Shown here one piece after another: positions 2,789-37,461 of a stretch of 64,000 bases of DNA. Under the pieces are notes generated by a model. The model did no database searches and was not told the origin of the DNA. It saw only the letters and a list, made by a program, of their open reading frames with translations. Source of the stretch: a virus (lineage: Duplodnaviria; Caudoviricetes); the IMG/VR virus record IMGVR_UViG_2639763148_000001, positions 4,351-68,350 of that record. One strand, written 5' to 3'. Numbering within the stretch: position 1 is the stretch's first letter; every line of letters begins with the position of its first letter. The translations under genes were made by a program, and so were the position numbers.

Positions 2789-5700
2789 TCACAGCAGGGC
2801 CGCCGCGAGCGTCATCCGGTTCAGGACCCGCTTCGCCGTCGCCTCCGCGTCACCGACCTCGTTCAAGGTCCAGTTGTTCGTGATCGAGACGCCGGGCCGG
2901 GCGGACGGTCCACCGGCCGCGGGCTTCTTCCCGCCCGCCAGAATGTCGAGCAGCCCGGACTCCTCGGCGAGCTGCCGGGCGCGCTGCGGCCGGGTCAGCG
3001 GAATCACGACCTCGGCGCCGGCCTCACCGATGAGGGCCGCCGTCGGGGAGGTCACGATCCCGCCGTCGGCGAACGGCAGCAGCGCCCTGACGCTGGACGG
3101 CAGACCGGACTTGATCTTCCGGACGATGTCGCTGCCGATGTTCCCCAGCGTCGCGAGGATCCGCCCCGGCAGCCGGGAGAACAGCGACACCACACTGGAG
3201 ATCAGCCCGCTGACGGCGGACAGCGCCCGGTCCTTGGCCGACGTGAACGCGGACCCGATCCGGCTCCCGAGCGCGGACAGCGCCGAGCCCGCCCGCCCGG
3301 GCAGCGCCGACAGGTACGACAGCACCCGCGACCCGAACGACGTGATGGCGTTCAGCGCCGCCGTTCCCGCCGCGATGGCCGCGTTCCCGATGGTCGACGC
3401 CAGCGACGACAGGGCCGCGCCGGCCCGGCCGGGCAGCGCCGCCAGGAACGCCAGCGCGGACTCGATGAACGACGAAGTCGCCTCCGTCGCCGCCGTGTAG
3501 GTGTTGGACAGCGACGTCAGGACCGCGGTGCTCATGTTGGACAGCGCCACCGACGTCCGCTCGGGCAGCGACGTGAAGAACGCGATCAGCTGGTCGATGA
3601 ACGCCGTCGTCGCGTCGACAACGGTCGTGAAGGCTGACGTCGCCGCGTTGTAGATCGTCTCGCCCAGGCTCACCAGCGCGTCCGCGATCTGCCCGGGGAG
3701 CACGGTGAACAGGTAGATAATCCCCGCTAGGGCCGTGAGCAGGGCGATCGCGACGCCGGCGACGGCCGAGGTGAACGCCTCGTACAGGAGGCCGGGGAGC
3801 GCGGCGAGGGCCGCGAGGATCTGCCCGGGCAGCGCGACGAAGAACGCGACCACCGAGTTGAAGGCGCCGACCAGGAGCGAGCTCACCGTCGCGAACGCCT
3901 GCGTGAAGAACGCGCCGATGCTCGCCCCGAGGCCCGTGAAGAACGTCCCCAGCGTCGTCCCCAGGGCCGAGACCTGCTCCAGGATGAGGCCCGGCAGGCT
4001 GGCGAAGAAGTCACCGACGGACGAGGCGCCGGACGACAAGGACTCGAACGCTGAGACCGCGAGGCCGGGGAGGGAGGTCAGGAAGGTGGCCACCGAGGTG
4101 AGGCCGCCGACCAGGCCGTTGATCGCGTCGACCAGGCCGGTCACGAGCGGCACTACCGCTTCGATGATCAGGAACCCGGCCAGGGCCGCCGCGACTTGGA
4201 GGATCGGCGCGACGATCTGGATCGCGAGGACGACCAGCGGGGCCAGTGCGGCGACGAGCTCGGCGATCGGCGGCAGGAGCGGCACCAGGGCCGCGACCAG
4301 CGCGTTGAACGCCGCGATGATGGGCGGCAGGACGGGCAGGAGCCCGGCGACGATCGCCGTCACCACCGGCGTCAGGGACGTCGCGACCGACGCGAGGGTG
4401 GTCGCCAGGGTGAGGAGCAGCGGGGCGAGCCCGGTGATCGCTGCCCCGAGGGCCTGGCCGAGGGCGTCCGCGAGCGGGATGATCGCCTGGATCAGGAAGA
4501 ACAGCGGCGGCCCGAGTTGCTGGATGACGGGCAGCAGGGCGCCGACCAGGGCCGAGATGACGGGGCCGACGGCGGCCGTCACGAGGTCGAGCGCGGGGGC
4601 CAGGAGATCCGCGACGAGACCGGCCAGCGCCCCCACCAGGGGCAGCAGAGGGGCCAGCGCGGCCAGCGCGGACCCGATGGCACCCCCCAGGGGCTCCAGG
4701 GACGGGCCGATGAGCGCCAGCCCTTCGGCGAGGGCCTGGCCGACCGTGGCCAACGCCGGGGCGATCTGGGCGAGTCCGGGCCCCAAGGCGTTGACCAGGT
4801 TGACCAGCGCCGGGCCGAGCGCCGTGAAGATCGGCGCCAGCGCGGGCGCGATAGCACCGACCTGCGTGACCAGCGCGGAGAGGATCGGGCCGAGCTGCGC
4901 CGCGATCGTCGCGACGGTCGAGAAGATCCCGCTGATCGCCGACTGGCCGGACGTCGAGTTGACGAACTCGGCGAACGACGCGGTGATCGCCTGGATGTTG
5001 TTGAGCAGCCCCCCGCCGGAGACCTGCGCGGCCGAGAAGACGCCGGACAGGATCGACCCGACGTTCTGAAGGATCCCGCCGAGCTGCCCGAAGACGGTCA
5101 GGGCCTGGTCGACCCACCGCACCGCGTCCCCGCCTGTGGCCGCCCGCTGGAGGAACTCCCCCAGCCGCTCACCGACGCTCGCGATGCTCGACGACAGCCG
5201 CGCGCCGAACGCGTCGGAGACGGCCGCGGCGACCTGGAGGAAGCCGGCGGTGAGCTTGTTCGTCGTCAGCGCCAGCCCGCCGACGGCCTGATCGGCCGCG
5301 CCGAGGATGCTGGTGACGTTCGCGACGCCCTGCGCGCCCTTGAGGTAGCCGGTGACCCCGAGCGCGGCCCGTCCCCAGCCGTCCGCGATGCTCGACAGGC
5401 CGCTCTTGAGCGGGCCGCCCAGCGCCTCCGCAACGGCGGTGATCTCGCCCTTGAGCTGGGAGAAGAAGGCGTCCTGGACGCTGTTCCTCAGCGACTCGAA
5501 TTCGGGCTTGAGGGCCCGGACCTCGAGCGCAGCGGCGCGCGCCGCCGGAGACAGGGCCTCCAGCGACTTGGTGAACGCCTTGGCGTCGCCGGTCAGCGCC
5601 GCGCCGAAGGCCTCGCTGACCCCTTGCAGGGCGAGCTTCAGCCCGCCCAGCGCCGCCTGGAAGCCGAGGACCGCCGCGGGGCCGGCGGCGATGATGCCGA

Positions 5701-22380: not shown

Positions 22381-24018
22381 TCAGGCCGCGGGGCAGGTCA
22401 GGAGCGTCTGGGCTCCGGACTCGCCGGACGGGCAGACCGGGACGGTGACGAACCGGGTGTCGACGGAGCGGTCGATCAGCGCGACGCACTCCTCGCTGAA
22501 GGTCGCCGTGAAGTCGTTGGTGCTGAAGCGGGTCGAGTCGTGGACCACGCCCAGGTTGACCTCGGCTCCGCGCCCGATCTGGAGCTGGCCCGCCGGGTAG
22601 ATCAGGAAGTTGACGACCGCCGGCCAGTCCGTGGCGGGGGTGGCGCCGCCGATGTCGGTCGGGACGCCCGGGGCGAGACCGCGGGCCCACTGGATGCGGA
22701 CGCCGAGCGGCGTGAACACGGCCTGGACGTCGGCGGTGGTGACCTCTTCGATGCCGACGCCGTTGCGGCGGGCCAGGTCGGCGAGGAAGAGATTCCTCGA
22801 CCACCAGGGGAAGACCACTTCGAGGGCGATCGACTCGCAGAGGCTGTGCCGTTCGATCATGTCGGCGGCCTGGAGCGCGACGGCGGCGAACACCGAGGAC
22901 AGGGCGCCGAACGTGGCGCCGATGGTGACGGCGGTGGCTCCGGCGACCGCCTGGTTGAACAGCTCCTGCCGGATGCGGATCTCGTGCGCGACCATCTGGT
23001 TCCGCAGGTACCAGGCGGTCAGCTCCGGGAAGTGCCTCTGGGTCAGGATGCCGGACTCCAGGCAGATCCCGACGGCCTCGCAGCGGACTTCCAGCGGGTC
23101 CGGGCACGGGATCTGGAAGCAGGGCTTGGTCGCGCCGGCGATGTCGTCGGCCTCGGTGTGCACCCAGGTCAGGGCGGCGACGTCGAGGGTCGGGGTCTTG
23201 AAGTAGCGGAGGCCACCGCGCGCGAGCTGGATCTCGGGCGCGTCCCAGAGCATGTCCGGGCAGGCCACGTCGGCGATGTCGTACACCGTCTCGGACGGCG
23301 CACACCAGCCGCCGGACGCGACCAGGTCGCCCTGCGGGAGGCGCCGCTGGCTCGAGGCCGTCAGCGTGGCCAGCGTGCCTTCGGGGACCGAGCCGGCGTC
23401 GGTGACGATCGACTCCTCCGGGAACGGGTGCGTGTACGAGGCGACCTGGGAGGAGCCGCCGCCGACGGTCTTGAGGGCGTTGGCGCGGGCGATGACGCCC
23501 GCGGTGAGGTCGTCGAAGTTGATCGGGCTGCCGGGCTTGTGGCCGGGGACGTCCACGGACGCGGTGATCCGGGTCACCGGCTTGTCGACCTCGGCGGGCA
23601 GGACCAGGCGCTGGCGGGCGCGGATCGCGGACAGGTTCAGCGCCGGGCGGGCCGGCGGTGCCGCGGCCACGACGGTCTCCGGCTCCGGCTCGTCGGCGGA
23701 AGCGGTGGCCTCCGGCTCGGGCGCGGGGTCGGGCTCGACAGCCGGCTCGACGGCGGCCGCCACTTCCTCGCCGCGCACCTGCGCGGCCAGGGCGTCGATC
23801 TCGGCAGCGGCGGTTGCGGCGGCCTCCAGGCGGGTGGCCTGCTCGGCGCGGATGTCGGTGACGGCCGCCGCGATCGTCCGCATCTCCTCCAGGTCGGTCG
23901 CGCTGACGCTGGTGCTGGTGGAGCGCGCTTCGAACGCGGCGACGGCGCCGTCGAGGAGCGCGGACAGCTCGTCGTCGTTCAGGTTGCTGTAGCTCTCGGG
24001 GAGCTCGAACGGGTCCAT
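22381..24018 (-). CDS. Major capsid protein (hexamer) with N-terminal scaffold-like domain
   Basis: 545 aa; coiled-coil N-terminus; 'ASGGWCAPSETVYD' motif. Confidence 0.88.
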   Translation of the reverse strand: MDPFELPESYSNLNDDELSALLDGAVAAFEARSTSTSVSATDLEEMRTIAAAVTDIRAEQATRLEAAATAAAEIDALAAQVRGEEVAAAVEPAVEPDPAPEPEATASADEPEPETVVAAAPPARPALNLSAIRARQRLVLPAEVDKPVTRITASVDVPGHKPGSPINFDDLTAGVIARANALKTVGGGSSQVASYTHPFPEESIVTDAGSVPEGTLATLTASSQRRLPQGDLVASGGWCAPSETVYDIADVACPDMLWDAPEIQLARGGLRYFKTPTLDVAALTWVHTEADDIAGATKPCFQIPCPDPLEVRCEAVGICLESGILTQRHFPELTAWYLRNQMVAHEIRIRQELFNQAVAGATAVTIGATFGALSSVFAAVALQAADMIERHSLCESIALEVVFPWWSRNLFLADLARRNGVGIEEVTTADVQAVFTPLGVRIQWARGLAPGVPTDIGGATPATDWPAVVNFLIYPAGQLQIGRGAEVNLGVVHDSTRFSTNDFTATFSEECVALIDRSVDTRFVTVPVCPSGESGAQTLLTCPAA

Positions 24019-28430: not shown

Positions 28431-28668
28431 GGGGGTCGATCCTCCTCGCTGGGAGCGGGTTCGCGGGGTCCTCGCAGACCTCGCACCAGGCCAGGACACC
28501 CGCCGTGGTGACGCCGTGGGAGGTGAGGAGCAGCAGGTCGGCGGTGATGCTGGTCCAGGCCCGGCAGTCGGCGCACCACGCTTCTCGGGCCGTGCCGGGG
28601 TGGAGGGCCACGTCTTCGGTGACGGGCTTGCCTATCTGGGCGGCCCGGCGGCCGGGGCGGCCGCTCAT
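28423..28668 (-). CDS. Small zinc-finger protein (81 aa)
   Basis: ATGA overlap with the portal stop; WCADC...WCEVC. Confidence 0.65.
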   Translation of the reverse strand: MSGRPGRRAAQIGKPVTEDVALHPGTAREAWCADCRAWTSITADLLLLTSHGVTTAGVLAWCEVCEDPANPLPARRIDPRG

Positions 28669-30419
28669 GCTGCGGCTCCCGCGCAGGCGCCGATCACGCC
28701 GGGCACCAGGCCGAACTCGTGGCTGACGCCGGCGGCGATGAGCTCGCGCGTGTATTCGTCGAGGGTGGCGGTCAGGCACTCGGGGTCGAGGCCGTACCGT
28801 TCGGCGATCTCGGGCGCCCGCGTCCAAGCGCCATCGAGGAGCCGCCACTGCTCGACCTGGTCCGCGCCGACGGTCAGGACGGTGTGCAGGCGGGCCGAGA
28901 CGACTTCGCGGGAGCGGGCGCGCTCGGAGCGGGGGCACGCCGGGGTCTTGCGGAGCTTCTCCCCGGCCGCGGTGAGTGCTCCCCAGATCAGGCCGTCTGC
29001 GGCGGCCAGGAGGCCGTCGCCGAGGCGCGCGGCTGCCGAGGCGGGCAGCGTGTCCGGCGGGGCTTCGGACTCGTCGACGGGCAGCTCGGGTGACGGGGGC
29101 GAGTCCTGGCCTCGGCCGGCGTCCGTCTCGTCAGCGGGCGGGGTCTCGGGCGGGGTCTTCTTGGCGGGTTCGGCCACGGTGGGGGCGTCGGACTCGTCGA
29201 AGCCGGTCTCCCGGCGGAGAGCCTGCGGGGAGATCACGCCTCGGTCGTACGCCTGCAGCGCGGTCTCGGAGCGGTTGGTGCGCACCCGGAGCGGGGCGGT
29301 GTCGTACCAGACCAGCCAGCGATGCCAGTCCTCGACTTTCTCGAATTCGAGGATCGGGCGCAGCCACTGCTGCGTGAGCGCGTAGGAGACCGTGGCGAGC
29401 TTCGGCTCGATGCCCAGATTGATCGCTTCGGCGGTAAGCGCCCACTGGCCCCAGTGGTTGACGTCGCCGAGGCCGAGGAGGATCTCGGCGGGGATCTCCA
29501 GGCCGATCGCGAAGCGCCGTACGGCCTCTTCGCGGAGCTTGAGGGCTAGATCGTCGAACTCCGACTCGAACTTGATCAGCTTGAACTCGGCGATGGCTTC
29601 GGCCGGGAGCTCCAGGATGATCGGGACCGTCGCGGCAGCCGACTCGGGGTCGCGGATCGCCGTCTCGGCGATCGTCATGAAGACCTCGATCAGGTCGTCC
29701 TCGGCGTCCGACTGCCCGGGCGCCGTGGGGAACCGGACGCCCTTGGGGACGAGGAGCAGGCCGCGGCCGGTGAGCCTGGACCTGGTGATCGCTCGTACGG
29801 CCGCGTTCAGCAGGAGCAGTTCCTCAAGCAGGTCCATGCTGGAGCGGACCGCGCTGTCGGCCTCCATCGACCGCTCTGGGTCCGGTTCCCACACGCGGAT
29901 TGCGACTGGCGCGTCGGGGTCCATGTTGTCGGGATCGCCTTCGGGAACGGCGACGTCGTCGCCGTCGACTTCGGCGATGAGCTTCCCTGCCTGCTGGCGG
30001 ACCTCCCGGATGGACAGGACCCGCCAGTCGTGGCCGTCCTCGGGGGAGAACGGGGACAAGACTTCCGAGTTGGGGCGGACCAGGATCCAGCCCTCGCCGG
30101 GTACGGTCAGGTGCTTCCCGAACGCGGCGAGCATCTTGCCCTGGCCGTCGGGGCCGCCGGCGATCTGCGAGACGATCTCCTGCGCACGGTGCCCGGGCGG
30201 GGCGGGCTCGATCGTGCCGTCGTCGGCGCGGCGGCCGGCGAACAGGCGGGCCCTGCCCATGGCGTTGCCCATCCAGGAGGCGGCGAACCGGACCTCGGGG
30301 ACGGCGTGGTACATGTCGAACGAGCGGTACTGCCATCCCTGCTGTCCGTTGCCGTTGCTCTGGCGCTTGATCTTCCGGGACACGTACCGCGACGACGCCG
30401 CGGTGATCTGCTTGGCCAT
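28665..30419 (-). CDS. Portal protein
   Basis: 584 aa between terminase and head genes; 'VPEVRFAASW', 'HLTVPGEGW', 'PAEILLGLGDVNHWGQW'. Confidence 0.85.
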   Translation of the reverse strand: MAKQITAASSRYVSRKIKRQSNGNGQQGWQYRSFDMYHAVPEVRFAASWMGNAMGRARLFAGRRADDGTIEPAPPGHRAQEIVSQIAGGPDGQGKMLAAFGKHLTVPGEGWILVRPNSEVLSPFSPEDGHDWRVLSIREVRQQAGKLIAEVDGDDVAVPEGDPDNMDPDAPVAIRVWEPDPERSMEADSAVRSSMDLLEELLLLNAAVRAITRSRLTGRGLLLVPKGVRFPTAPGQSDAEDDLIEVFMTIAETAIRDPESAAATVPIILELPAEAIAEFKLIKFESEFDDLALKLREEAVRRFAIGLEIPAEILLGLGDVNHWGQWALTAEAINLGIEPKLATVSYALTQQWLRPILEFEKVEDWHRWLVWYDTAPLRVRTNRSETALQAYDRGVISPQALRRETGFDESDAPTVAEPAKKTPPETPPADETDAGRGQDSPPSPELPVDESEAPPDTLPASAAARLGDGLLAAADGLIWGALTAAGEKLRKTPACPRSERARSREVVSARLHTVLTVGADQVEQWRLLDGAWTRAPEIAERYGLDPECLTATLDEYTRELIAAGVSHEFGLVPGVIGACAGAAA

Positions 30420-31665: not shown

Positions 31666-34497
31666 TCACCTGCCGATCCTGCGCCCGTACATGCCGGCCG
31701 CCGGGGACTGCGTCCGGCTGCCACTGGGCTGCGGGGCCTGCGGGAGCGGGGCGTGGACGATGGCGCCCTTGTTCGCCTCCGGGATCAGGCCGTAGACCAA
31801 GATGCAGGAGGCGTCGATCCGGCCGGGGCTGTCGGGGTCCGTCGGCATCCAGGTGGCCCACTCCCGTTCCAGGTCGACGAACAGGCCACGGAGCCGGACC
31901 CGGTCCTGGACCATCTGCTGCGCCACCGGTTCCGCACGCAGCAGCTTGCCCTGCTTGGCGCGGACCGGGTCGATCAGCGGCATGAGGACCTTGGCCGGGA
32001 TCACGCCGTCGCGCTGCAGCGTCTCCCACGAGGTACGGATCGCGAGCTCGCACATGTCCCGGCCGAAGTTCCACTCCACGTAGATCACCGAGGCGTTCGT
32101 CTCGTAGGCGAGCTTGCAGGCCGCGGTGGACCAGTCCGCCGAGGACATCGGGGCCGACACATCGTGGGTGATCCACACACGCCCGTCATCACCGAGGAAG
32201 CCACCAACGACGCCCGCGGTGTCGCGGCCGCCGCCCGAGGGGTCGATGGCGACGGCGATCCGCTGCGGCTCGACCTGCGTGCCGCCGTCCCGGAGCATCC
32301 TCAGCAGCTCTTCGGACACGAGGGCACCCTCGGCGGGCTGCGGGTCGCCCTGGGCGAGGCTGTGCCAGTCCCGAACGATGGACGTGGCTTTCATGTCCGC
32401 CCACCAGGCCAGCAGCTTCCGCCGGTTCCGGGTCGGGATCTTCGGGTGCGTCAGCGGCTCGCCGTCATCGCGGCCGAGCGGGTCCGGCCCGAACTTGCTC
32501 GGGTTCGCGATGGCGGGCAGGTGGACGACCTTCCACCGGCCGCCCTCCTCGATCCTGCCTTCCTCGGAGAGGCGGCGGCCGGCCCAATCGTCGGGGTGCC
32601 AGCGGGTCTGGATGCCGACCACCGCGTTTCGGTCCGGCTGGAGGCGCTTCAGGGCGGTGCTGGAGTACCAGTCGTGGAGCGCGTTGCGGGACGCATCGGA
32701 CTCCGCGTCCGCGCGGTCCTTGTGAGGGTCGTCGATGATCAGGCAGTTGTGGACGAGTACCTGGCCTGCAAAGAAGTTGCTCGCTCCTTCCACTTGGAGG
32801 TCGTAGACGCGGACGCGGTCACCGCGTACTGGGCGAACCACGGCCACGGCGTCGAGCTCGACTTGTGGTGCACCGCGTGGCACGTCTTGCAGAGGCTGAC
32901 CAGGTTCTCCGGCCGGTTGTCCCGCACGTCCTCGCTGATGTGGTGCACGTGGAACGTCGTCCGAAGCACGCCCTTGCCCTTGCGGACGACCCGCATGAAC
33001 GTCTCCGGGGCGTTGCAGGCGACGCAACGCCGACGATCCCGCTCGAGGATCAGCGGGCGCATCGCCCGGAACCAGGCCGCGTACGAGGTGCCGTCGGTGT
33101 ACCGCGAGTTCCCCTCCCCCGTCATCCGGGCCGCGTGCGCCTCGTTCGCGCACTCCCGGGAGCAGTACGCCGTGCGGCTGCTCTTCGGCCGGAACGCCTT
33201 CGAGCACCGCGCACATGCCTTGTCCGGGAGCGTCCGGCCGAGGCCCTTCCTCGGCGGGTGCTGCTCCTTGCAGGCCGGTGAGCAGTAGCGGACGTGCCGC
33301 CACTGCTGGTTCGGCATCGAGGTGCCGCAGCCGACGCACGGCCGGGTCGTGGACCTGGCCTCGTCCCGGCAGGCCGTCGAGCAGGTGACCGTCTTCACCC
33401 CGCGCCGGATCTTCTTCGCGTGGTCCGCCTGTGGGAGCTGGAACTCCTTCTCGCACACGGCGCAGGTCAGCGTCACCAGGAACGCGGCCCGCCTGCACTC
33501 CGGCGAGCAGTACGTCATGCCGTCCCGCCGTGGCAACTCCTTCCCGCAGTGCTTGCACGCCGGCCGGGTCATCGCCCGAGCCGCGTTCGAGCAGGCTCGG
33601 CCGCAGTACGGCCCGGGCTTCCCCTCCCGCTGCGCCCGGGCCAGCACCGACGGCACCCGTCGGAACGTCTCGCCGCAGTGAACGCACGTCGCCTCGACCG
33701 TGGTCCGGCCCTGAGAGGAGCGCGTCGCCTGGCCGGAGGTCGGCGGCGGGGACGTAGCCGCGTCCGGGGACGAAGAAGCGGTGCTCGGGGGTGCATCGGA
33801 CGGCGCGGCCGGCCCGGGTGATGACTTCAAGGGTCTCCCTCTCGCTGACGCTGGTCGCGATGACGGGAGCCCAGATCGGACGGTCCTGGTCATGGTCGTA
33901 GGCGAGGACCAGGTCGTCCCGGCCGGAGTCGACGTACTCGCCGATGGGCACGACTCCGCCGGGCGTACGGATGAGCACGTCACCGGCCACACAGTTTACC
34001 GGATGGCCCGTCAAACCCTTGCCAACCGATACGGATCGGACGCCGCCGCCGGCCGTCAGCGTCCAGTCCTGCATCGCGCCCGATCCGGGCCGCAGCGTCA
34101 GGTCGTACTCATCGCCGTACTCCTCGACGTACGACCGGATCGTCTTGCCGCGCTTGAGCGCCAGGTCGTCGGAGTACGAGGCGATGGCGACCCGGTCCGC
34201 CGGGTACAGGCACAGCCACCAGAACGGGAACCACTCCCCTACCGTCGTGCTCTTGCCAACCTGCGGCGGCGTGAAGATCATCAGTCGGTCGTAGTCGCCG
34301 CGCACGACACCGGCGAGCGCCTCGCCGATGACCCTGATGTGCGGGCGCATGCGGAACGTCCGATCCATCCCGCGCGCTAGAGCGACCGGGTCGCGCAGCA
34401 AGTCCCGGCTCAGCGACCGTTTGGCCGCCTCCAGCCGCTGGAACACCGCCCCGTCGTCCAGGTGCTCCAGCCCATCGACGTGGTGCCCGCTGCTCAC
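31666..34497 (-). CDS. terL: Terminase large subunit containing an intein
   Basis: GTGA overlap with TerS; Walker A 'PPQVGKST', Walker B 'LIIDDP', 'QTRWHPDD', nuclease 'IDPSGG...SPGRIDA'. Confidence 0.93.
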   Translation of the reverse strand: MSSGHHVDGLEHLDDGAVFQRLEAAKRSLSRDLLRDPVALARGMDRTFRMRPHIRVIGEALAGVVRGDYDRLMIFTPPQVGKSTTVGEWFPFWWLCLYPADRVAIASYSDDLALKRGKTIRSYVEEYGDEYDLTLRPGSGAMQDWTLTAGGGVRSVSVGKGLTGHPVNCVAGDVLIRTPGGVVPIGEYVDSGRDDLVLAYDHDQDRPIWAPVIATSVSERETLEVITRAGRAVRCTPEHRFFVPGRGYVPAADLRPGDALLSGPDHGRGDVRSLRRDVPTGAVGAGPGAAGGEARAVLRPSLLERGSGDDPAGVQALREGVATAGRHDVLLAGVQAGRVPGDADLRRVREGVPAPTGGPREEDPARGEDGHLLDGLPGRGQVHDPAVRRLRHLDAEPAVAARPLLLTGLQGAAPAEEGPRPDAPGQGMCAVLEGVPAEEQPHGVLLPGVRERGARGPDDGGGELAVHRRHLVRGLVPGDAPADPRAGSSALRRLQRPGDVHAGRPQGQGRASDDVPRAPHQRGRAGQPAGEPGQPLQDVPRGAPQVELDAVAVVRPVRGDRVRVYDLQVEGASNFFAGQVLVHNCLIIDDPHKDRADAESDASRNALHDWYSSTALKRLQPDRNAVVGIQTRWHPDDWAGRRLSEEGRIEEGGRWKVVHLPAIANPSKFGPDPLGRDDGEPLTHPKIPTRNRRKLLAWWADMKATSIVRDWHSLAQGDPQPAEGALVSEELLRMLRDGGTQVEPQRIAVAIDPSGGGRDTAGVVGGFLGDDGRVWITHDVSAPMSSADWSTAACKLAYETNASVIYVEWNFGRDMCELAIRTSWETLQRDGVIPAKVLMPLIDPVRAKQGKLLRAEPVAQQMVQDRVRLRGLFVDLEREWATWMPTDPDSPGRIDASCILVYGLIPEANKGAIVHAPLPQAPQPSGSRTQSPAAGMYGRRIGR
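32739..33893 (-). CDS. Zn-finger-repeat HNH endonuclease nested in the +1 frame of the intein (start uncertain)
   Basis: Five CxxC...(Y/T)C(G/S)xxC repeats, then 'RDRRRCVAC...HVHHI...NRPENLVSLCKTCHAVHH'; protein-like from about 33705; ATG 33893 is the nearest in-frame start. Confidence 0.8.
   Translation of the reverse strand: MTRTVRSGLPSSRPASARGRPLKSSPGPAAPSDAPPSTASSSPDAATSPPPTSGQATRSSQGRTTVEATCVHCGETFRRVPSVLARAQREGKPGPYCGRACSNAARAMTRPACKHCGKELPRRDGMTYCSPECRRAAFLVTLTCAVCEKEFQLPQADHAKKIRRGVKTVTCSTACRDEARSTTRPCVGCGTSMPNQQWRHVRYCSPACKEQHPPRKGLGRTLPDKACARCSKAFRPKSSRTAYCSRECANEAHAARMTGEGNSRYTDGTSYAAWFRAMRPLILERDRRRCVACNAPETFMRVVRKGKGVLRTTFHVHHISEDVRDNRPENLVSLCKTCHAVHHKSSSTPWPWFAQYAVTASASTTSKWKERATSLQARYSSTTA
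32746..33993 (-). mobile_element. Intein (416 aa) in TerL just before Walker B
   Basis: N|CVAGD...block B 'CTPEHRF'...block F/G 'VYDLQVEGASNFFAGQVLVHN'|C. Confidence 0.92.
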
Positions 34498-35174
34498 GAC
34501 TCCTCGCCGCCCCCGCCCTCGTCCTCGTCTGCGTCTTCCTCGGCCGGGGGCGTCTCCTCGCCGCCGCCGGCTTCGTCGTCCTGGTCGCCGTCCTCGTCGT
34601 CGGCGCCGTTGACCGCGTTCAGCCGGCGGTTCACAGCGGCGGCCAGGTCGGCGAGCTCCACGCGGCGCTGGTCCTCCGGCATCTGCGCGAACGCTGCGAG
34701 CTGCGCCGCGAGCGGGTTCCCGCCCTGGCCCGTGATGGCGATCGTCTCCGTCGGATCGCCGAACAACACCCGCCGGTGCCGCATCGCCACGTCCATGAGC
34801 CGGATGAAGTCGCCCGGGGACAGCTCCTCGGCGCGCAGGGTGCTCAGGCGCTGGGCCAGCTTGCCGACCGCCGCCCCGAGGATCTTGGCGTCCGCTTCGG
34901 CGGCCCGGCGCCGCTCCTCCAGCCACGTCGCCTCGTACAGCCGGTCCAGGTGCCGGTCCCACGCCTCCACGCGCTGCCGCCACCGGAACTCGGAGGCGGT
35001 GTTCCTCACGTGCCCGGTCGCGAGCGTCAGGCTTTCCGCAGCTTTCACAAGGGTGCGGGCTCTGCCGAGGTCCCGGTACGTGGTGAATTGCCCGTGTCTG
35101 CGGGCTGACTCTCCGGGTTGGCGTTCCCAGGGGTCGAGGCTGGGGTCGAGGGCGATGGGCGCGTTCACGGTCAC
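34494..35174 (-). CDS. terS: Terminase small subunit
   Basis: 'PWERQPGES...F..YRDLG..R...WRQRVEAWD' motif; directly upstream of TerL. Confidence 0.8.
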   Translation of the reverse strand: MTVNAPIALDPSLDPWERQPGESARRHGQFTTYRDLGRARTLVKAAESLTLATGHVRNTASEFRWRQRVEAWDRHLDRLYEATWLEERRRAAEADAKILGAAVGKLAQRLSTLRAEELSPGDFIRLMDVAMRHRRVLFGDPTETIAITGQGGNPLAAQLAAFAQMPEDQRRVELADLAAAVNRRLNAVNGADDEDGDQDDEAGGGEETPPAEEDADEDEGGGGEES

Positions 35175-36109
35175 GGCTGCTGCTCGCTCGGGGCGTAGTT
35201 GCTGCCGGACAGGTACTCGCCTGCCAGGCGCTCCAGCAGGAGGTAGCCCTTGCCCTGGGCGATCTCGCCGCGTCCTTCTGCTGCGGCGATGGCCTTGTTG
35301 ATGGTGGCGGCGGCGGGGGCGGGCAGCATGCGGGTGCCGAGGACGGTTTCGAGGCCGACGAGTCCCTGGTGCAGGGGTTCGCCGTCTGGGGTCTGGTAGC
35401 CGGCTTGGAGGTCGGTGAGGTGGTTCTCGACGATGGCGAGGATGGCGTGGAGGGCGGTGGCGACGTTGCCGACCTTGTGGGCGGCGTGGGTGGAGGCGAG
35501 CGTGTCCAGGGTCTGCTCGTAGTCCGCGCGGGCGGCGAGCCAGGAGGCGTTCTGGCCGATGCGGGCCTGCTCGAAGGCCTCGCGGGCGGCTTCGAGTTCG
35601 GGGGGCAGGAAGATCAGGGAGACGGTCGCGAAGTCCAGGTTCGCCTCCGAGAGGCCTTCGGGGCTGACCTCGGCGAGGAGCTGGAGCGTTTCGTCGTCCA
35701 GGCCGGAGTAGGCGCGCCAGTCGACGTCGTCGAGCTCGTCGTAGAGCTGCTTGAGGGTGGCGGGGTCGTCCTGGCCGGCGATCGCGTTGTGCGAGAGCTG
35801 GAGCGCGACGAGCTGCTGGCGGGTCAGCTTCTCCTCGATGAGCATGCAGTCGATCTCGTCCAGGCCGGCGTCGATCGACGCCATCGTTCGGTGGTTCCCG
35901 GAGAGGACCAGCTCGGCGCCTTCCTCGTACTCGCCGCCGGAGTAGATCAGGGGGGTGGAGGTGAGGCAGCCGTCGCGGCGGACGTTCTCCACCAGCCGGT
36001 CGTACTCCTCCTTGCGCATGTACCGGGCGTTCACCTCCAGCCGGGTGAGCTCGCGGGGGTCGCGGCGGACGAGGGGGGGCCGGAACTGGGGGGCTGGGGT
36101 GTGCGTCAT
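35171..36109 (-). CDS. ParB/Srx-like N-terminal domain protein (312 aa)
   Basis: ATGA overlap; 'NARYM...LVENVRRDG...VLSGNHR...LSHNAIAGQDD'. Confidence 0.75.
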   Translation of the reverse strand: MTHTPAPQFRPPLVRRDPRELTRLEVNARYMRKEEYDRLVENVRRDGCLTSTPLIYSGGEYEEGAELVLSGNHRTMASIDAGLDEIDCMLIEEKLTRQQLVALQLSHNAIAGQDDPATLKQLYDELDDVDWRAYSGLDDETLQLLAEVSPEGLSEANLDFATVSLIFLPPELEAAREAFEQARIGQNASWLAARADYEQTLDTLASTHAAHKVGNVATALHAILAIVENHLTDLQAGYQTPDGEPLHQGLVGLETVLGTRMLPAPAAATINKAIAAAEGRGEIAQGKGYLLLERLAGEYLSGSNYAPSEQQP

Positions 36110-37461
36110 CGGTGGTCCTTCCCGTGCTTGCGCTTCCAGAGGTCGAGGGCTTCGGCGAGGTCGTAGGCGCCGAGGGGGCCGCCGTACTGGAGCTGGTAGC
36201 GGTGGATCCCGTCGCCGGGGTCCTTGCTGCTGGCCTCGGTCCGCTTGTGGAGCTTCACGCCGGGGATGCCGCGGCCGTACTTCGCGCTGTTGGGGCGGTC
36301 GGTGAACGCCGTGGTGGCCCAGCCGGTGATGCGCTTTGACAGGGACCGCTGGACGAGGAGCTGCGCTTCCCGGGTGGAGGCGGCCATCACGATCAGCTTG
36401 GCCAGGCGCCGGTAGCGGGTCCAGGAGACCGGGAAGTCGGACATCAGGTAGGCGGTGTTCGGGTCGAACTTGGGCGGCAGGTAGGCGAACGCGCCGATCA
36501 GCTTCCCGTCCACGGCCACGCCGCACGCGATCAGCGGCGACCCCGGCTTGATCGTCTTGGACATGAACTGCGAGCGGACGGCGGCGAACTGGCCGCCCGT
36601 GAGGACATGGAGCGTCATCCGGTCGCCGAGTTCCTCGTCGGCGCCGATCTTCGGCATCGGGATCGGCTCGGTGGGCTGGTGGGGGCGGACGATGCGGCGG
36701 GGGCCGGCGGCGGCGTACACGTAGATCGGCAGGCCGCGGTTCGCGGTCTGGACGACTCCGGCGAGCTGGTCGCGGAGCTCCGGGCGTTCGATGTGGAGGC
36801 CAAGGACCCAGTTCGGCCGGTCTTGGACCTGCTCGATGATCCGTTCCTTGCCCGCCTCGTCGAGTTCGCCGAACGTCGGCTCGGGCCAGGAGAATGCCGC
36901 GTCGATCGGCGCGAACTGGCCCTGGTAGTCCTTTGAGTAGAACGGGGGAAACATGACGACCGGCGCCTCCGGGGGCACGGCGTCGTCGAGGTAGTCGCGG
37001 ACGTCGCCGGCGTAGAACGAGCCGAGGCTGGTCTCTAGGCCGCGGAGCTTCGTGGAGGTCTTCTCGTGCATGCGGGGCCACTGCTCCTGGGTGGCCTGCA
37101 TCATGCGGCGGAAGTAGGCGCCCTCCTTGCCTACCCATTGGAGGAAGCGGGTGCCGAGCATCAGCGTCGCCATCAGGTCGGCGCGGTCCTCCGTGTAGGG
37201 CTTGAGCCAGCCCAGTTCTTCCTCGTACTCGGGGCGCAGAACGTACTCGAGCTCCTCGCCGGCCAGGAACCAGCCCAGGGCGCATGAGTAGGCCTGGATG
37301 TCGTTGCCGTGAACGCGCCGCGCGTTCCCGAACCGGGCGTGGAGGACTCGCTCGATGGTGAAGTTCCCGGAGCAGCCGACGTAGATGTCCTCGCCGGGCC
37401 AGGTTCCGGCGTGCTCGTAGATGATCGACCGGAGCGGGGCGGGGATGGAGCCGTGGAACAT
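36106..37461 (-). CDS. Putative DNA-modification enzyme: adenine-MTase-like domain + C-terminal GNAT/Mom-like domain
   Basis: 'YVGCSGNFTIE', 'HGND', 'FPPFY' MTase-like motifs; C-terminal 'VDGKLIG...RYRRLAKL...SAKYGRG'. Confidence 0.6.
   Translation of the reverse strand: MFHGSIPAPLRSIIYEHAGTWPGEDIYVGCSGNFTIERVLHARFGNARRVHGNDIQAYSCALGWFLAGEELEYVLRPEYEEELGWLKPYTEDRADLMATLMLGTRFLQWVGKEGAYFRRMMQATQEQWPRMHEKTSTKLRGLETSLGSFYAGDVRDYLDDAVPPEAPVVMFPPFYSKDYQGQFAPIDAAFSWPEPTFGELDEAGKERIIEQVQDRPNWVLGLHIERPELRDQLAGVVQTANRGLPIYVYAAAGPRRIVRPHQPTEPIPMPKIGADEELGDRMTLHVLTGGQFAAVRSQFMSKTIKPGSPLIACGVAVDGKLIGAFAYLPPKFDPNTAYLMSDFPVSWTRYRRLAKLIVMAASTREAQLLVQRSLSKRITGWATTAFTDRPNSAKYGRGIPGVKLHKRTEASSKDPGDGIHRYQLQYGGPLGAYDLAEALDLWKRKHGKDHR

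Follow-up and report, generated by a model that had tools for sequence, protein, structure and literature searches.

We analysed a 64,000-nucleotide (nt) stretch of viral DNA (Duplodnaviria, Caudoviricetes; positions 4,351 to 68,350 of the IMG/VR virus record IMGVR_UViG_2639763148_000001), referred to here as the window, which holds the packaging and head module of a Streptomyces prophage on its minus strand. The gene for the large terminase subunit (TerL) of this module, terL, is interrupted by an intein, and the DNA encoding the middle of the intein also encodes, in the +1 frame, an HNH endonuclease with five zinc (Zn) ribbons. Inteins are normally single polypeptides. Positions are those of the window; its terL locus is called WIN where it must be told apart from the related loci collected for comparison, which carry L-numbers. 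The features of the locus are as follows.

31666..34500, minus strand: terL precursor open reading frame (ORF), about 944 amino acids (aa) including the intein (from the ORF list and the codon-position GC profile; the start near 34500 is approximate)
33994..34500, minus strand: TerL N-extein, ending ...GLTGHPVN (extein alignment and phrog_38)
33994..34038, minus strand: tract in which 6 of the final 15 N-extein codons end in A or T (extein background 0.10)
32746..33993, minus strand: class-1 intein of 416 aa in the TerL frame, Cys1 to His-Asn416 (Pfam and invariant residues)
33955..33993, minus strand: intein block A, CVAGDVLIRTPGG (sequence)
33835..33840, minus strand: Shine-Dalgarno-like AGGGAG, 4 nt before the +1-frame TTG (sequence; a similar motif occurs in relatives)
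32739..33830, minus strand: proposed nested gene for a 363-aa Zn-ribbon HNH endonuclease, from TTG 33830..33828 to TGA 32741..32739
33775..33795, minus strand: intein block B, CTPEHRF, with the TxxH motif (sequence and alignment)
32869..33693, minus strand: TerL-frame read-through of the nuclease gene, intein residues 101-375, rich in Gly, Ala, Arg and Pro (composition, AlphaFold2 (AF2) and the ratio of nonsynonymous to synonymous substitution rates (dN/dS))
33591..33686, minus strand: Zn ribbon 1 (CxxC...CxxxC)
33495..33557, minus strand: Zn ribbon 2
33369..33464, minus strand: Zn ribbon 3
33270..33338, minus strand: Zn ribbon 4
33150..33215, minus strand: Zn ribbon 5
32862..33026, minus strand: HNH catalytic domain (CxxC ... 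HH ... N ... N ... CxxCHxxHHK; PF01844)
32742..32861, minus strand: C-terminal helical tail of the HNH protein, residues 324-363, over the C-terminal splicing region of the intein (AF2)
32785..32808, minus strand: intein block F, VYDLQVEG, dual-coded with the HNH tail (sequence, codon freezing)
32746..32760, minus strand: intein block G, VLVHN, dual-coded with the HNH tail (sequence, codon freezing)
31666..32745, minus strand: TerL C-extein, beginning with the +1 Cys and the Walker B motif, CLIIDDP (phrog_38 and junction alignment)

The minus-strand ORF that holds TerL is open from 34983 to 31666, and the codon-position GC signal begins at about 34500. The two exteins match phrog_38 ('terminase large subunit') at profile positions 251-402 and 406-714 and are therefore contiguous across the 416-aa insert, which lies in the Walker B motif of TerL. 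The bounds of the intein are Cys1 (33993..33991) and Asn416 (32748..32746), followed directly by the +1 Cys, and the aligned loci share the insertion site ...G.TG..[DN]↓C ... HN↓C.I[IV]DDP (arrows mark the splice junctions). Intein residues C1, T68, H71, H415 and N416 are invariant among 30 aligned inteins, the +1 residue is Cys, and the Pfam Intein_splicing profile PF14890 scores 39.1 bits against a cut-off of 35.8; the intact splicing blocks described in an initial annotation of this DNA, made from the sequence by itself, are thus borne out by the Cys1, TxxH and His-Asn residues and by the profile score. Splicing of the precursor would be expected from these intact blocks and from the need for TerL in packaging. 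In the AF2 model of the TerL-frame intein, residues 1-100 and 379-416 have a model confidence score (pLDDT) of 93-98, and residues 101-375 one of only about 36-50.

The DNA beneath this poorly modelled middle carries the signature of a different frame. Between about 33750 and 32850, position 1 of the TerL frame takes over from position 3 as the GC-rich codon position, which indicates that the real coding frame across this segment is +1. The +1-frame ORF at 32739..33992 encodes five Zn ribbons of the form CxxC...CxxxC as well as an HNH domain (Pfam PF01844, score 24.3 bits, cut-off 21.4; phrog_1271, E = 2.6e-33). Residues C269, C272, H296, H297, N305, N309, C314, H318 and H322 of the nuclease are invariant among 43 sequences, and every residue invariant in these relatives, Zn ligands and HNH motif alike, is present in the window copy. 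The AF2 model of the +1-frame protein has a mean pLDDT of 84, with residues 41-360 folded, and resembles beads on a string; a Foldseek search of the whole model against the Protein Data Bank returned nothing at E ≤ 0.001, the alignments obtained being local ones to HNH proteins (Cap5 and ScoMcrA; probability 0.85-0.99, E > 0.001) and to Zn-finger arrays. The first C-extein codons form the +1-frame stop, a TGA (32741..32739) that starts 4 nt past the first base of the +1 Cys codon. Profiles, ribbons and GC-position shift therefore agree with what had been read from the sequence at the outset, namely a +1 frame of high third-position GC (GC3) with five Zn fingers and a complete HNH domain that overlaps the C-terminal splicing blocks and stops just past the junction. 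The nuclease is present as a single copy in the window's own genome. A 259-aa database protein (P0005), identical to the window +1 ORF, begins at ATG 33518 inside Zn ribbon 2; automatic gene calling thus truncates the nuclease, leaving out the first ribbon and half of the second.

The layout is real, and it is widely conserved. The initial annotation had proposed tblastn with both frames as a check on whether they stay open in homologs: of 45 sources (WIN and L001-L044), 44 have no stop across the match in the frame one base behind that of the HNH, which always lies at +1, and the exception, L011, is a free-standing relative without a terminase around it. In the 39 sources with full context, the open TerL-side frame spans 577-1315 codons, down to a GC content of 0.45, and the third frame in the 45-source set is open for 5-124 codons only. 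Insertion site, +1 offset and the switch of GC-rich codon position are common to Gordonia phage Clown, Brucella phage Pr, Synechococcus phage S-EIVl and Ralstonia phage RS-CA1, and the Brucella phage Pr record annotates a 'terminase large subunit, intein present' and, overlapping it at an offset of +1, a 'putative HNH endonuclease'. A tblastn query made from the TerL frame also matches Clown (41%), which shows only that both frames co-vary. Later counts refer to 34 sources (WIN and 33 loci), leaving out L011, the fragments L012, L013 and L042-L044, and the duplicates or near-duplicates L022, L023, L027, L028 and L030. One locus, L009, is a phage terL with the same element on a contig titled Fictibacillus arsenicus with a GC content of 0.65; this value seems high for the genus, and the contig may be a contaminant or foreign DNA.

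Selection differs sharply between the frames. In 14 pairwise comparisons of the middle region, and read only as a contrast between frames, dN/dS is 0.12-0.62 for the HNH frame in the 11 pairs with estimable dS (0.12-0.49 in ten of them), 1.09-3.07 for the TerL frame in all 14 pairs and 0.94-1.98 for the third frame; the corresponding values for the exteins are 0.04-0.69. For WIN the HNH-frame values are 0.35-0.49 against L016 and L005, and against its nearest relative, L016, the contrast is 0.35 (HNH frame) to 1.69 (TerL frame). This contrast indicates that the middle is a nuclease gene through which the TerL frame merely passes, and the per-frame analysis, another of the checks proposed initially, accordingly points to purifying selection in the HNH frame and to a TerL frame that is only kept open. 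The middle of the intein frame, which had been put at roughly 290 aa and described as looking non-coding, comes to about 275 aa and is, by model and composition, an unconstrained, predicted-disordered read-through whose one property is that it is open.

That openness was assessed by resampling the synonymous codons of the HNH frame according to local codon usage (3000 trials). In the window 4.66 TerL-frame stops are expected and none is seen, a stop-free frame arising in 0.6% of trials (P = 0.006), while the third frame shows 7 stops where 6.6 are expected. None of the 29 loci tested has a TerL-frame stop, against 1.3-15.6 expected, and at the lower-GC loci between 0 and 3 of the 3000 trials were stop-free. 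The caution voiced in the initial annotation, that a stop-free alternative frame is cheap to maintain at this GC3, was too generous, and on the resampling the openness of the TerL frame across the nuclease gene is itself selected.

At the 3′ end of the nested gene the two frames constrain one another more closely. At the conserved TerL residues of blocks F and G the entropy of third codon positions is 0.66 bits, as against 1.19-1.51 in the exteins and 1.43-1.49 in the N-terminal part of the intein. Across 34 aligned rows, one of which (L003) is misaligned, TerL-frame codons are frozen as TAT in 29 rows (+1-frame residue Met), CAA in 25 (Lys), GTG in 27 (Trp), TTT in 32 (Leu), and NTA or NTT in 33 (Tyr or Phe), and these are often the 'wrong' codons for GC-rich hosts. 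The residues that they specify lie in two tail helices of the AF2 model (332-341 and 345-359; pLDDT 85-98). The C-terminal helices of the HNH protein are truly dual-coded with intein blocks F and G. In the window itself the block F Tyr codon (32803..32805) is TAC, and the nuclease tail has Thr where 29 of the 34 loci have Met (TAT-G).

How the +1 frame is entered bears on whether the nuclease is a separate protein. The initial annotation had found no Shine-Dalgarno-linked start near the first Zn finger; there is one candidate, TTG 33830..33828, with GGGAG 4 nt upstream and finger 1 48 codons downstream, which is the only start codon in the window +1 frame between ATG 33893 and finger 1 and occupies a position shared with the starts of relatives. 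In 25 of the 34 loci an ATG or TTG open to the downstream HNH falls within one 6-codon window of the block B alignment. The TTG starts stand at the window's spot or 3 nt before it and are made by a T-ending Leu or Val codon followed by G; the ATG starts stand 9 nt upstream of the TTG spot (6 nt in L015) and are made by GAT-G. These start-making codons end in A or T although the A/T content at third positions (A/T3) of the host exteins is only 0.06-0.2, and purine-rich motifs (GGGAG, AAGGAG, AGGAGG) usually lie 4-12 nt upstream. Gene callers placed a Met at the homologous spot on many metagenome contigs.

The alternative to an internal start is a programmed +1 (or -2) frameshift within the intein, whose product would be a fusion of the TerL N-extein, the N-terminal intein domain and the Zn-ribbon HNH. 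The window +1 frame would permit this, being open from 2 nt before Cys1 to the C-extein, so that any shift upstream of finger 1 would work, and nine of the 34 loci have no open-frame start in the conserved 6-codon interval: six (L003, L004, L029, L033, L037 and L038) have none there, and L002, L021 and L039 have theirs outside the open frame. The position of the start is hence not universal. In L016, however, a +1-frame stop lies 15 nt before the TTG, and in Brucella phage Pr (L002), L021 and L039 the +1 frame opens only after block B, with a Shine-Dalgarno-preceded start directly before the first finger. The segment between block B and finger 1 varies in length and sequence and has no conserved nucleotide motif by eye, no formal motif or RNA-structure search having been made; what the loci do conserve is a start codon and the purine-rich motif before it. 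The leader, about 45 aa long, which precedes finger 1 and overlaps block B, is predicted to be disordered and shows no reduction in synonymous variation. We regard a frameshift as unlikely, a minor rival to internal initiation, which is favoured because the start is conserved in 25 of the 34 loci and the +1 frame is closed just upstream in several. The expectation that the nuclease is made separately while the intein frame stays open for TerL is thus supported by the comparison; of the two routes offered for it initially, initiation gains from the conserved start and the frameshift loses from the closed upstream frames.

The distribution of the element among close relatives is patchy. Of 20 close terL alleles (76-87% aa identity), 18 lack the intein and have a seamless junction, ...VN↓[L/V]L[I/V][I/V]DDP (the arrow marks the insertion point); the other two are L057, a full element on the same contig as L016, and L059, a mini-intein of 139 aa. 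The nuclease is present in one of 300 other genomes of the genus. Further mini-inteins occupy the same terL site in L014 (2709-3140; 144 aa) and L015 (2799-3245; 149 aa), in both of which the nuclease is deleted between intein residues of about 105 and 365. L014, L015 and L059 all retain the splicing blocks and an open TerL frame, L014 keeps the last 44 or so codons of the nuclease ORF, and in L035 the HNH frame is broken and the TerL frame open. L017 (2392-3771) and L018 (2586-3965) are 460-aa versions of the intein on viral contigs; between them the proportion of synonymous differences (pS) is 0.12 in the middle (94% identical) and 0.37-0.39 in the exteins, which looks like a recent transfer between diverged terminase genes. 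No such excess likeness of element over flanks is found between WIN and L016 (pS 0.39 against 0.37-0.38).

The flanks of the insertion bear a further mark. The unusual A/T-ending N-extein codons noticed at the start were confirmed, with 6 of the last 15 in WIN, 9 in L016, 7 in L014 and 7 in L005, compared with 0-2 of 15 in the 18 intein-less alleles. The tract is confined to the 5′ side, no such cluster occurring on the C-extein side, and the +1 Cys stands where the intein-less alleles have Leu or Val. We read the tract as a probable co-conversion tract, and its one-sidedness suggests a cut site 5′ of the insertion point, at a predicted distance of roughly 15-55 nt. To judge from these sequence patterns, the element looks mobile.

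A different role has been suggested for such nucleases, namely that the nested HNH is a packaging accessory working with the terminase and not a homing enzyme. The nuclease gene does lie inside terL, a packaging role was proposed for its homologue in the part of the brucellaphage report available to us (PMC4422536), Zn-ribbon HNH genes adjoining terminase genes are described as common (PMC3592412, in the accessible text), and the protein may be likened to the HNH proteins beside terminase genes in HK97-like phages. Against this, the whole element is missing from 18 of 20 close alleles with a seamless junction, three mini-inteins at the same site have lost the HNH, the HNH frame of L035 is broken with TerL open, and the L017 and L018 inteins are far more alike than their exteins. 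These patterns of loss, sporadic presence and transfer are those of a selfish element and not of an essential partner, and a packaging function seems improbable here.

Taken together, we consider it probable, at roughly 0.78, that the homing endonuclease of a mobile class-1 intein in the Walker B motif of a prophage terL is encoded by a gene nested in the intein's +1 frame. Ribosomes translating terL would read straight across the nuclease gene, producing a disordered linker of about 275 residues between the splicing parts at the two ends, of about 100 aa (N-terminal) and about 40 aa (C-terminal), whereupon the intein would splice out and TerL would be restored. A second set of ribosomes would initiate at TTG 33830, which follows GGGAG and lies between intein blocks A and B, and would read on in the +1 frame to the TGA formed by the first C-extein codons. 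The free product of 363 aa would comprise a disordered leader of about 45 aa, the five Zn ribbons and HNH domain, and two C-terminal helices sharing codons with intein blocks F and G. This free nuclease would cut or nick intein-less terL alleles, whose repair would bring in the intein together with the +1 Cys and a short stretch of 5′ flank. Splicing, initiation at TTG 33830, the nuclease activity and the target site are what we infer from the sequences. Two products from one stretch imply that selection would act at once on the HNH protein, on the splicing blocks and on the mere openness of the TerL frame.

Several points weigh against this reading. Estimates of dN/dS are biased in overlapping frames, so that only the contrast between them is meaningful. 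The start-codon statistic (an expectation of 13.7% taken from the extein +1 frame; binomial 4e-15) is inflated by shared ancestry, and conserved TerL-frame Leu/Val-Glu residues also favour a TTG at this spot; the lack of a start at nine loci has been mentioned. In the window, a TTG with a 4-nt spacing to GGAG is a weak and slightly cramped initiation site, the replacement of the tail Met by Thr could be an early sign of decay, and the element sits in a prophage of a draft genome.

These last points, with the rarity of the nuclease in the genus (one in 300 other genomes), also speak for a nested gene that is functional in the family and a silent relic in this particular prophage, where only the openness of TerL would still matter. 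The +1 ORF is nevertheless intact, the residues invariant in 43 relatives are all kept, and dN/dS against L016 is 0.35 in the HNH frame and 1.69 in the TerL frame; we give the relic little credence. Two compensating assembly indels that displaced an in-frame HNH, for which nothing speaks but their prior plausibility in draft genomes, are refuted by comparison and can be set aside almost entirely, because the +1 offset recurs in 44 of 45 sources, finished phage genomes included; two Logan re-assemblies, which probably derive from the source sample and hence are not independent, reproduce 32600..34100 with 0 differences and 0 gaps, and no in-frame fused relative, which had been named at the outset as a finding that would speak against a nested gene, occurs among proteins of 572-2000 aa (weak evidence). 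The search that returned these two DNA assemblies listed no RNA run containing the stretch.

The neighbouring genes of the packaging and head module are the following.

34494..35174, minus strand: terS, small terminase subunit (phrog_6299, E = 2.8e-21)
28665..30419, minus strand: portal (phrog_776)
22381..24018, minus strand: major head protein (phrog_777)
36106..37461, minus strand: 451-aa ORF upstream of terS (phrog_7858, unknown function, E = 3.6e-84)
35171..about 36100, minus strand: ORF with a ParB-like N-terminus, by eye, upstream of terS

Beyond the terminase loci, the nuclease belongs to a large family. An exhaustive profile-free search gave 73 clusters at 50% identity at E 1e-30, 216 at 1e-10 and 1833 at 0.001. 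Among 138 fetched relatives with the CxxCHxxHH motif, 73 end in the ...[YF]SSTT tail; most of the other 65 have variants of this tail or are truncated by a contig end, and a few match it in length and in the closing Leu...Tyr/Phe pattern, with different residues elsewhere. Some members are free-standing. A metagenome scan with P0124 yielded L076-L082, of which L077 was inspected: L077 (2995-3909) has its own AAGGAG-ATG start and no enclosing open frame, and it retains a tail of about 40 aa with the closing hydrophobic pattern of the intein-nested forms. L011 (2692-3720) adjoins integrase- and excisionase-like ORFs. A metagenome scan for the free-standing status of P0051, a relative with a divergent tail, gave no match. 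Among the free-standing forms listed, the closing Leu and Tyr/Phe are present in all, Met in most and Trp in a minority. In a tree of the core (118 columns, 121 rows, rooted on tail-less relatives), which is weakly supported with 12 of 118 inner branches starred, seven free-tailed forms fall at four places inside the nested forms.

This raises the possibility, which we hold to be doubtful and advance tentatively, that the tail of about 40 residues was born by overprinting on blocks F and G, and that the free nucleases with a tail (L077, L011, P0051 and others) are escapees from inteins. Such an origin would fit the Met, Trp, Leu and Tyr/Phe of the tail, which are fixed by unusual synonymous codons in blocks F and G, as well as the predicted folding of the tail and its retention at the same length in free-standing forms. 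The L077 tail was also read in the -1 frame as a relic of blocks F and G (..AHD-stop..KVEVN..IFHA); this was rejected as circular, the apparent match being forced by conserved tail residues. Were the overprinting origin true, escape from inteins would run opposite to the accepted route, which has inteins invaded by free-standing homing nucleases; a folded segment of protein would have arisen within an intein, and the family would represent an ancient, cross-phylum overlap under three constraints: those of the nuclease, of the splicing blocks, and of a host frame that has only to stay open.

For the locus itself, the proposed nested nuclease gene would mean that the same DNA gives two proteins, the host frame remaining intact because it renders the nuclease gene as a disordered linker that does no harm. 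A nuclease gene could then be united with a splicing element without fusion, which bears on the 'splicing first, nuclease later' view of intein origin. It also suggests a rule for annotation, that a long 'junk' middle in a terminase intein calls for a look at the +1 frame, as gene callers miss or truncate the nuclease, and it would offer a clean system for the study of selection on overlapping frames and of internal initiation.

The closest known system is that of the brucellaphages (Tb/Pr group), for which a TerL intein with an overlapping HNH ORF has been in print since 2015 (PMC4422536). The Brucella phage resembles the window in its TerL site (...TGNRAD↓C ... VHN↓CVIIDDP), in an HNH at +1, in a Zn-ribbon HNH homologous to the window nuclease (31% identity, E = 4e-15), and in a TerL frame open across the nuclease at a GC content of 0.50. 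It differs in a shorter intein (332 aa), an annotated HNH ORF of 228 aa with fewer Zn ribbons, a +1 frame that is closed until 280 nt after Cys1, with a GTG start behind AAGGAG located after block B, and a +1 stop 11 nt before the junction. In its available text the report leaned to a terminase-linked or replication role, and that text holds no family-wide or selection analysis (PMC4422536). The TerL intein of Gordonia phage Clown is named, in the part of a survey to which we had access, only as the largest class-1 intein, at 385 aa (bioRxiv 10.1101/2025.01.02.630785). Clown shares with the window the site, the +1 offset, the GC-position switch and a TTG start behind GGGAG, with 43% identity over 87% of the nuclease query (tblastn), and differs in that its +1 stop lies 22 nt into the C-extein; it was the sole match among actinophage terminases of the phage collection searched by tblastn.

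In the accessible portion of the same survey, Gosselin, Arsenault and Gogarten (2025) describe inteins with an endonuclease VII-like nuclease (IPR004211) in 'frame 3' and propose that a free-standing nuclease gene invaded an intein (bioRxiv 10.1101/2025.01.02.630785). As in the window, the nuclease described there lies on the strand of the intein in another frame, the intein-frame middle is unstructured, and TerL is among the hosts. The window nuclease, in contrast, is a five-Zn-ribbon HNH in frame 2 (+1), and a Pfam search with it returned HNH and HNH_3 only, with no Endonuclease_7 at E ≤ 0.01. As the ShiLan domain, an HNH concealed out of frame within DNA methylases of mycobacteriophages has been described (Arsenault et al., 2025; PMC11855218). 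Its HNH core is homologous to that of the window (36% identity over query residues 169-291; E = 1e-5 to 2e-8), and the host frame is likewise reported to be stop-free across the HNH. According to the excerpted text of that report, however, splicing domains are not detectable, the host is a non-essential methylase, and leaderless GTG initiation is proposed (PMC11855218), whereas the window has an internal Shine-Dalgarno-like motif before the candidate start. In Mycobacterium phage ShiLan gp65 (L074, 2501-2851) the offset of the HNH from the host methylase gene is +2 and not +1.

Split inteins with a free-standing homing endonuclease gene between their halves, as presented in the available part of Dassa et al. 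(2009; PMC2677866), resemble the window in that the nuclease is a separate gene product inside the intein-coding region. They differ in that host gene and intein alike are split over two genes, with splicing in trans; the window intein is uninterrupted, since the host frame runs on across the nuclease gene. The dCTP deaminase intein of cyanophage CL131 is, in the accessible text on it, canonical with an in-frame HNH (PMC6293099). It has in common with the window a HINT splicing domain and an HNH as one mobile unit, and is a single polypeptide, whereas the window would yield two products from two frames. The free-standing L077 and L011 and the HNH of Bacillus phage Pascal have the same Zn-ribbon and HNH core without an enclosing open frame or a terminase context. 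Insertion into the Walker B motif is itself established for TerL inteins, where the site is termed TerL1-e in the portion consulted of Kelley et al. (2016). A literature search on overlapping or overprinted intein nucleases returned, within the collection covered, nothing beyond the brucellaphage report and those of Gosselin et al. and Arsenault et al. The layout was thus already noted in Brucella phages and is of a kind that is known and little-studied; to this, the comparison of sequences made here appears to add the breadth of the family, a +1 offset kept across phyla, a likely internal start, the dual-coded tail and the one-sided tract.

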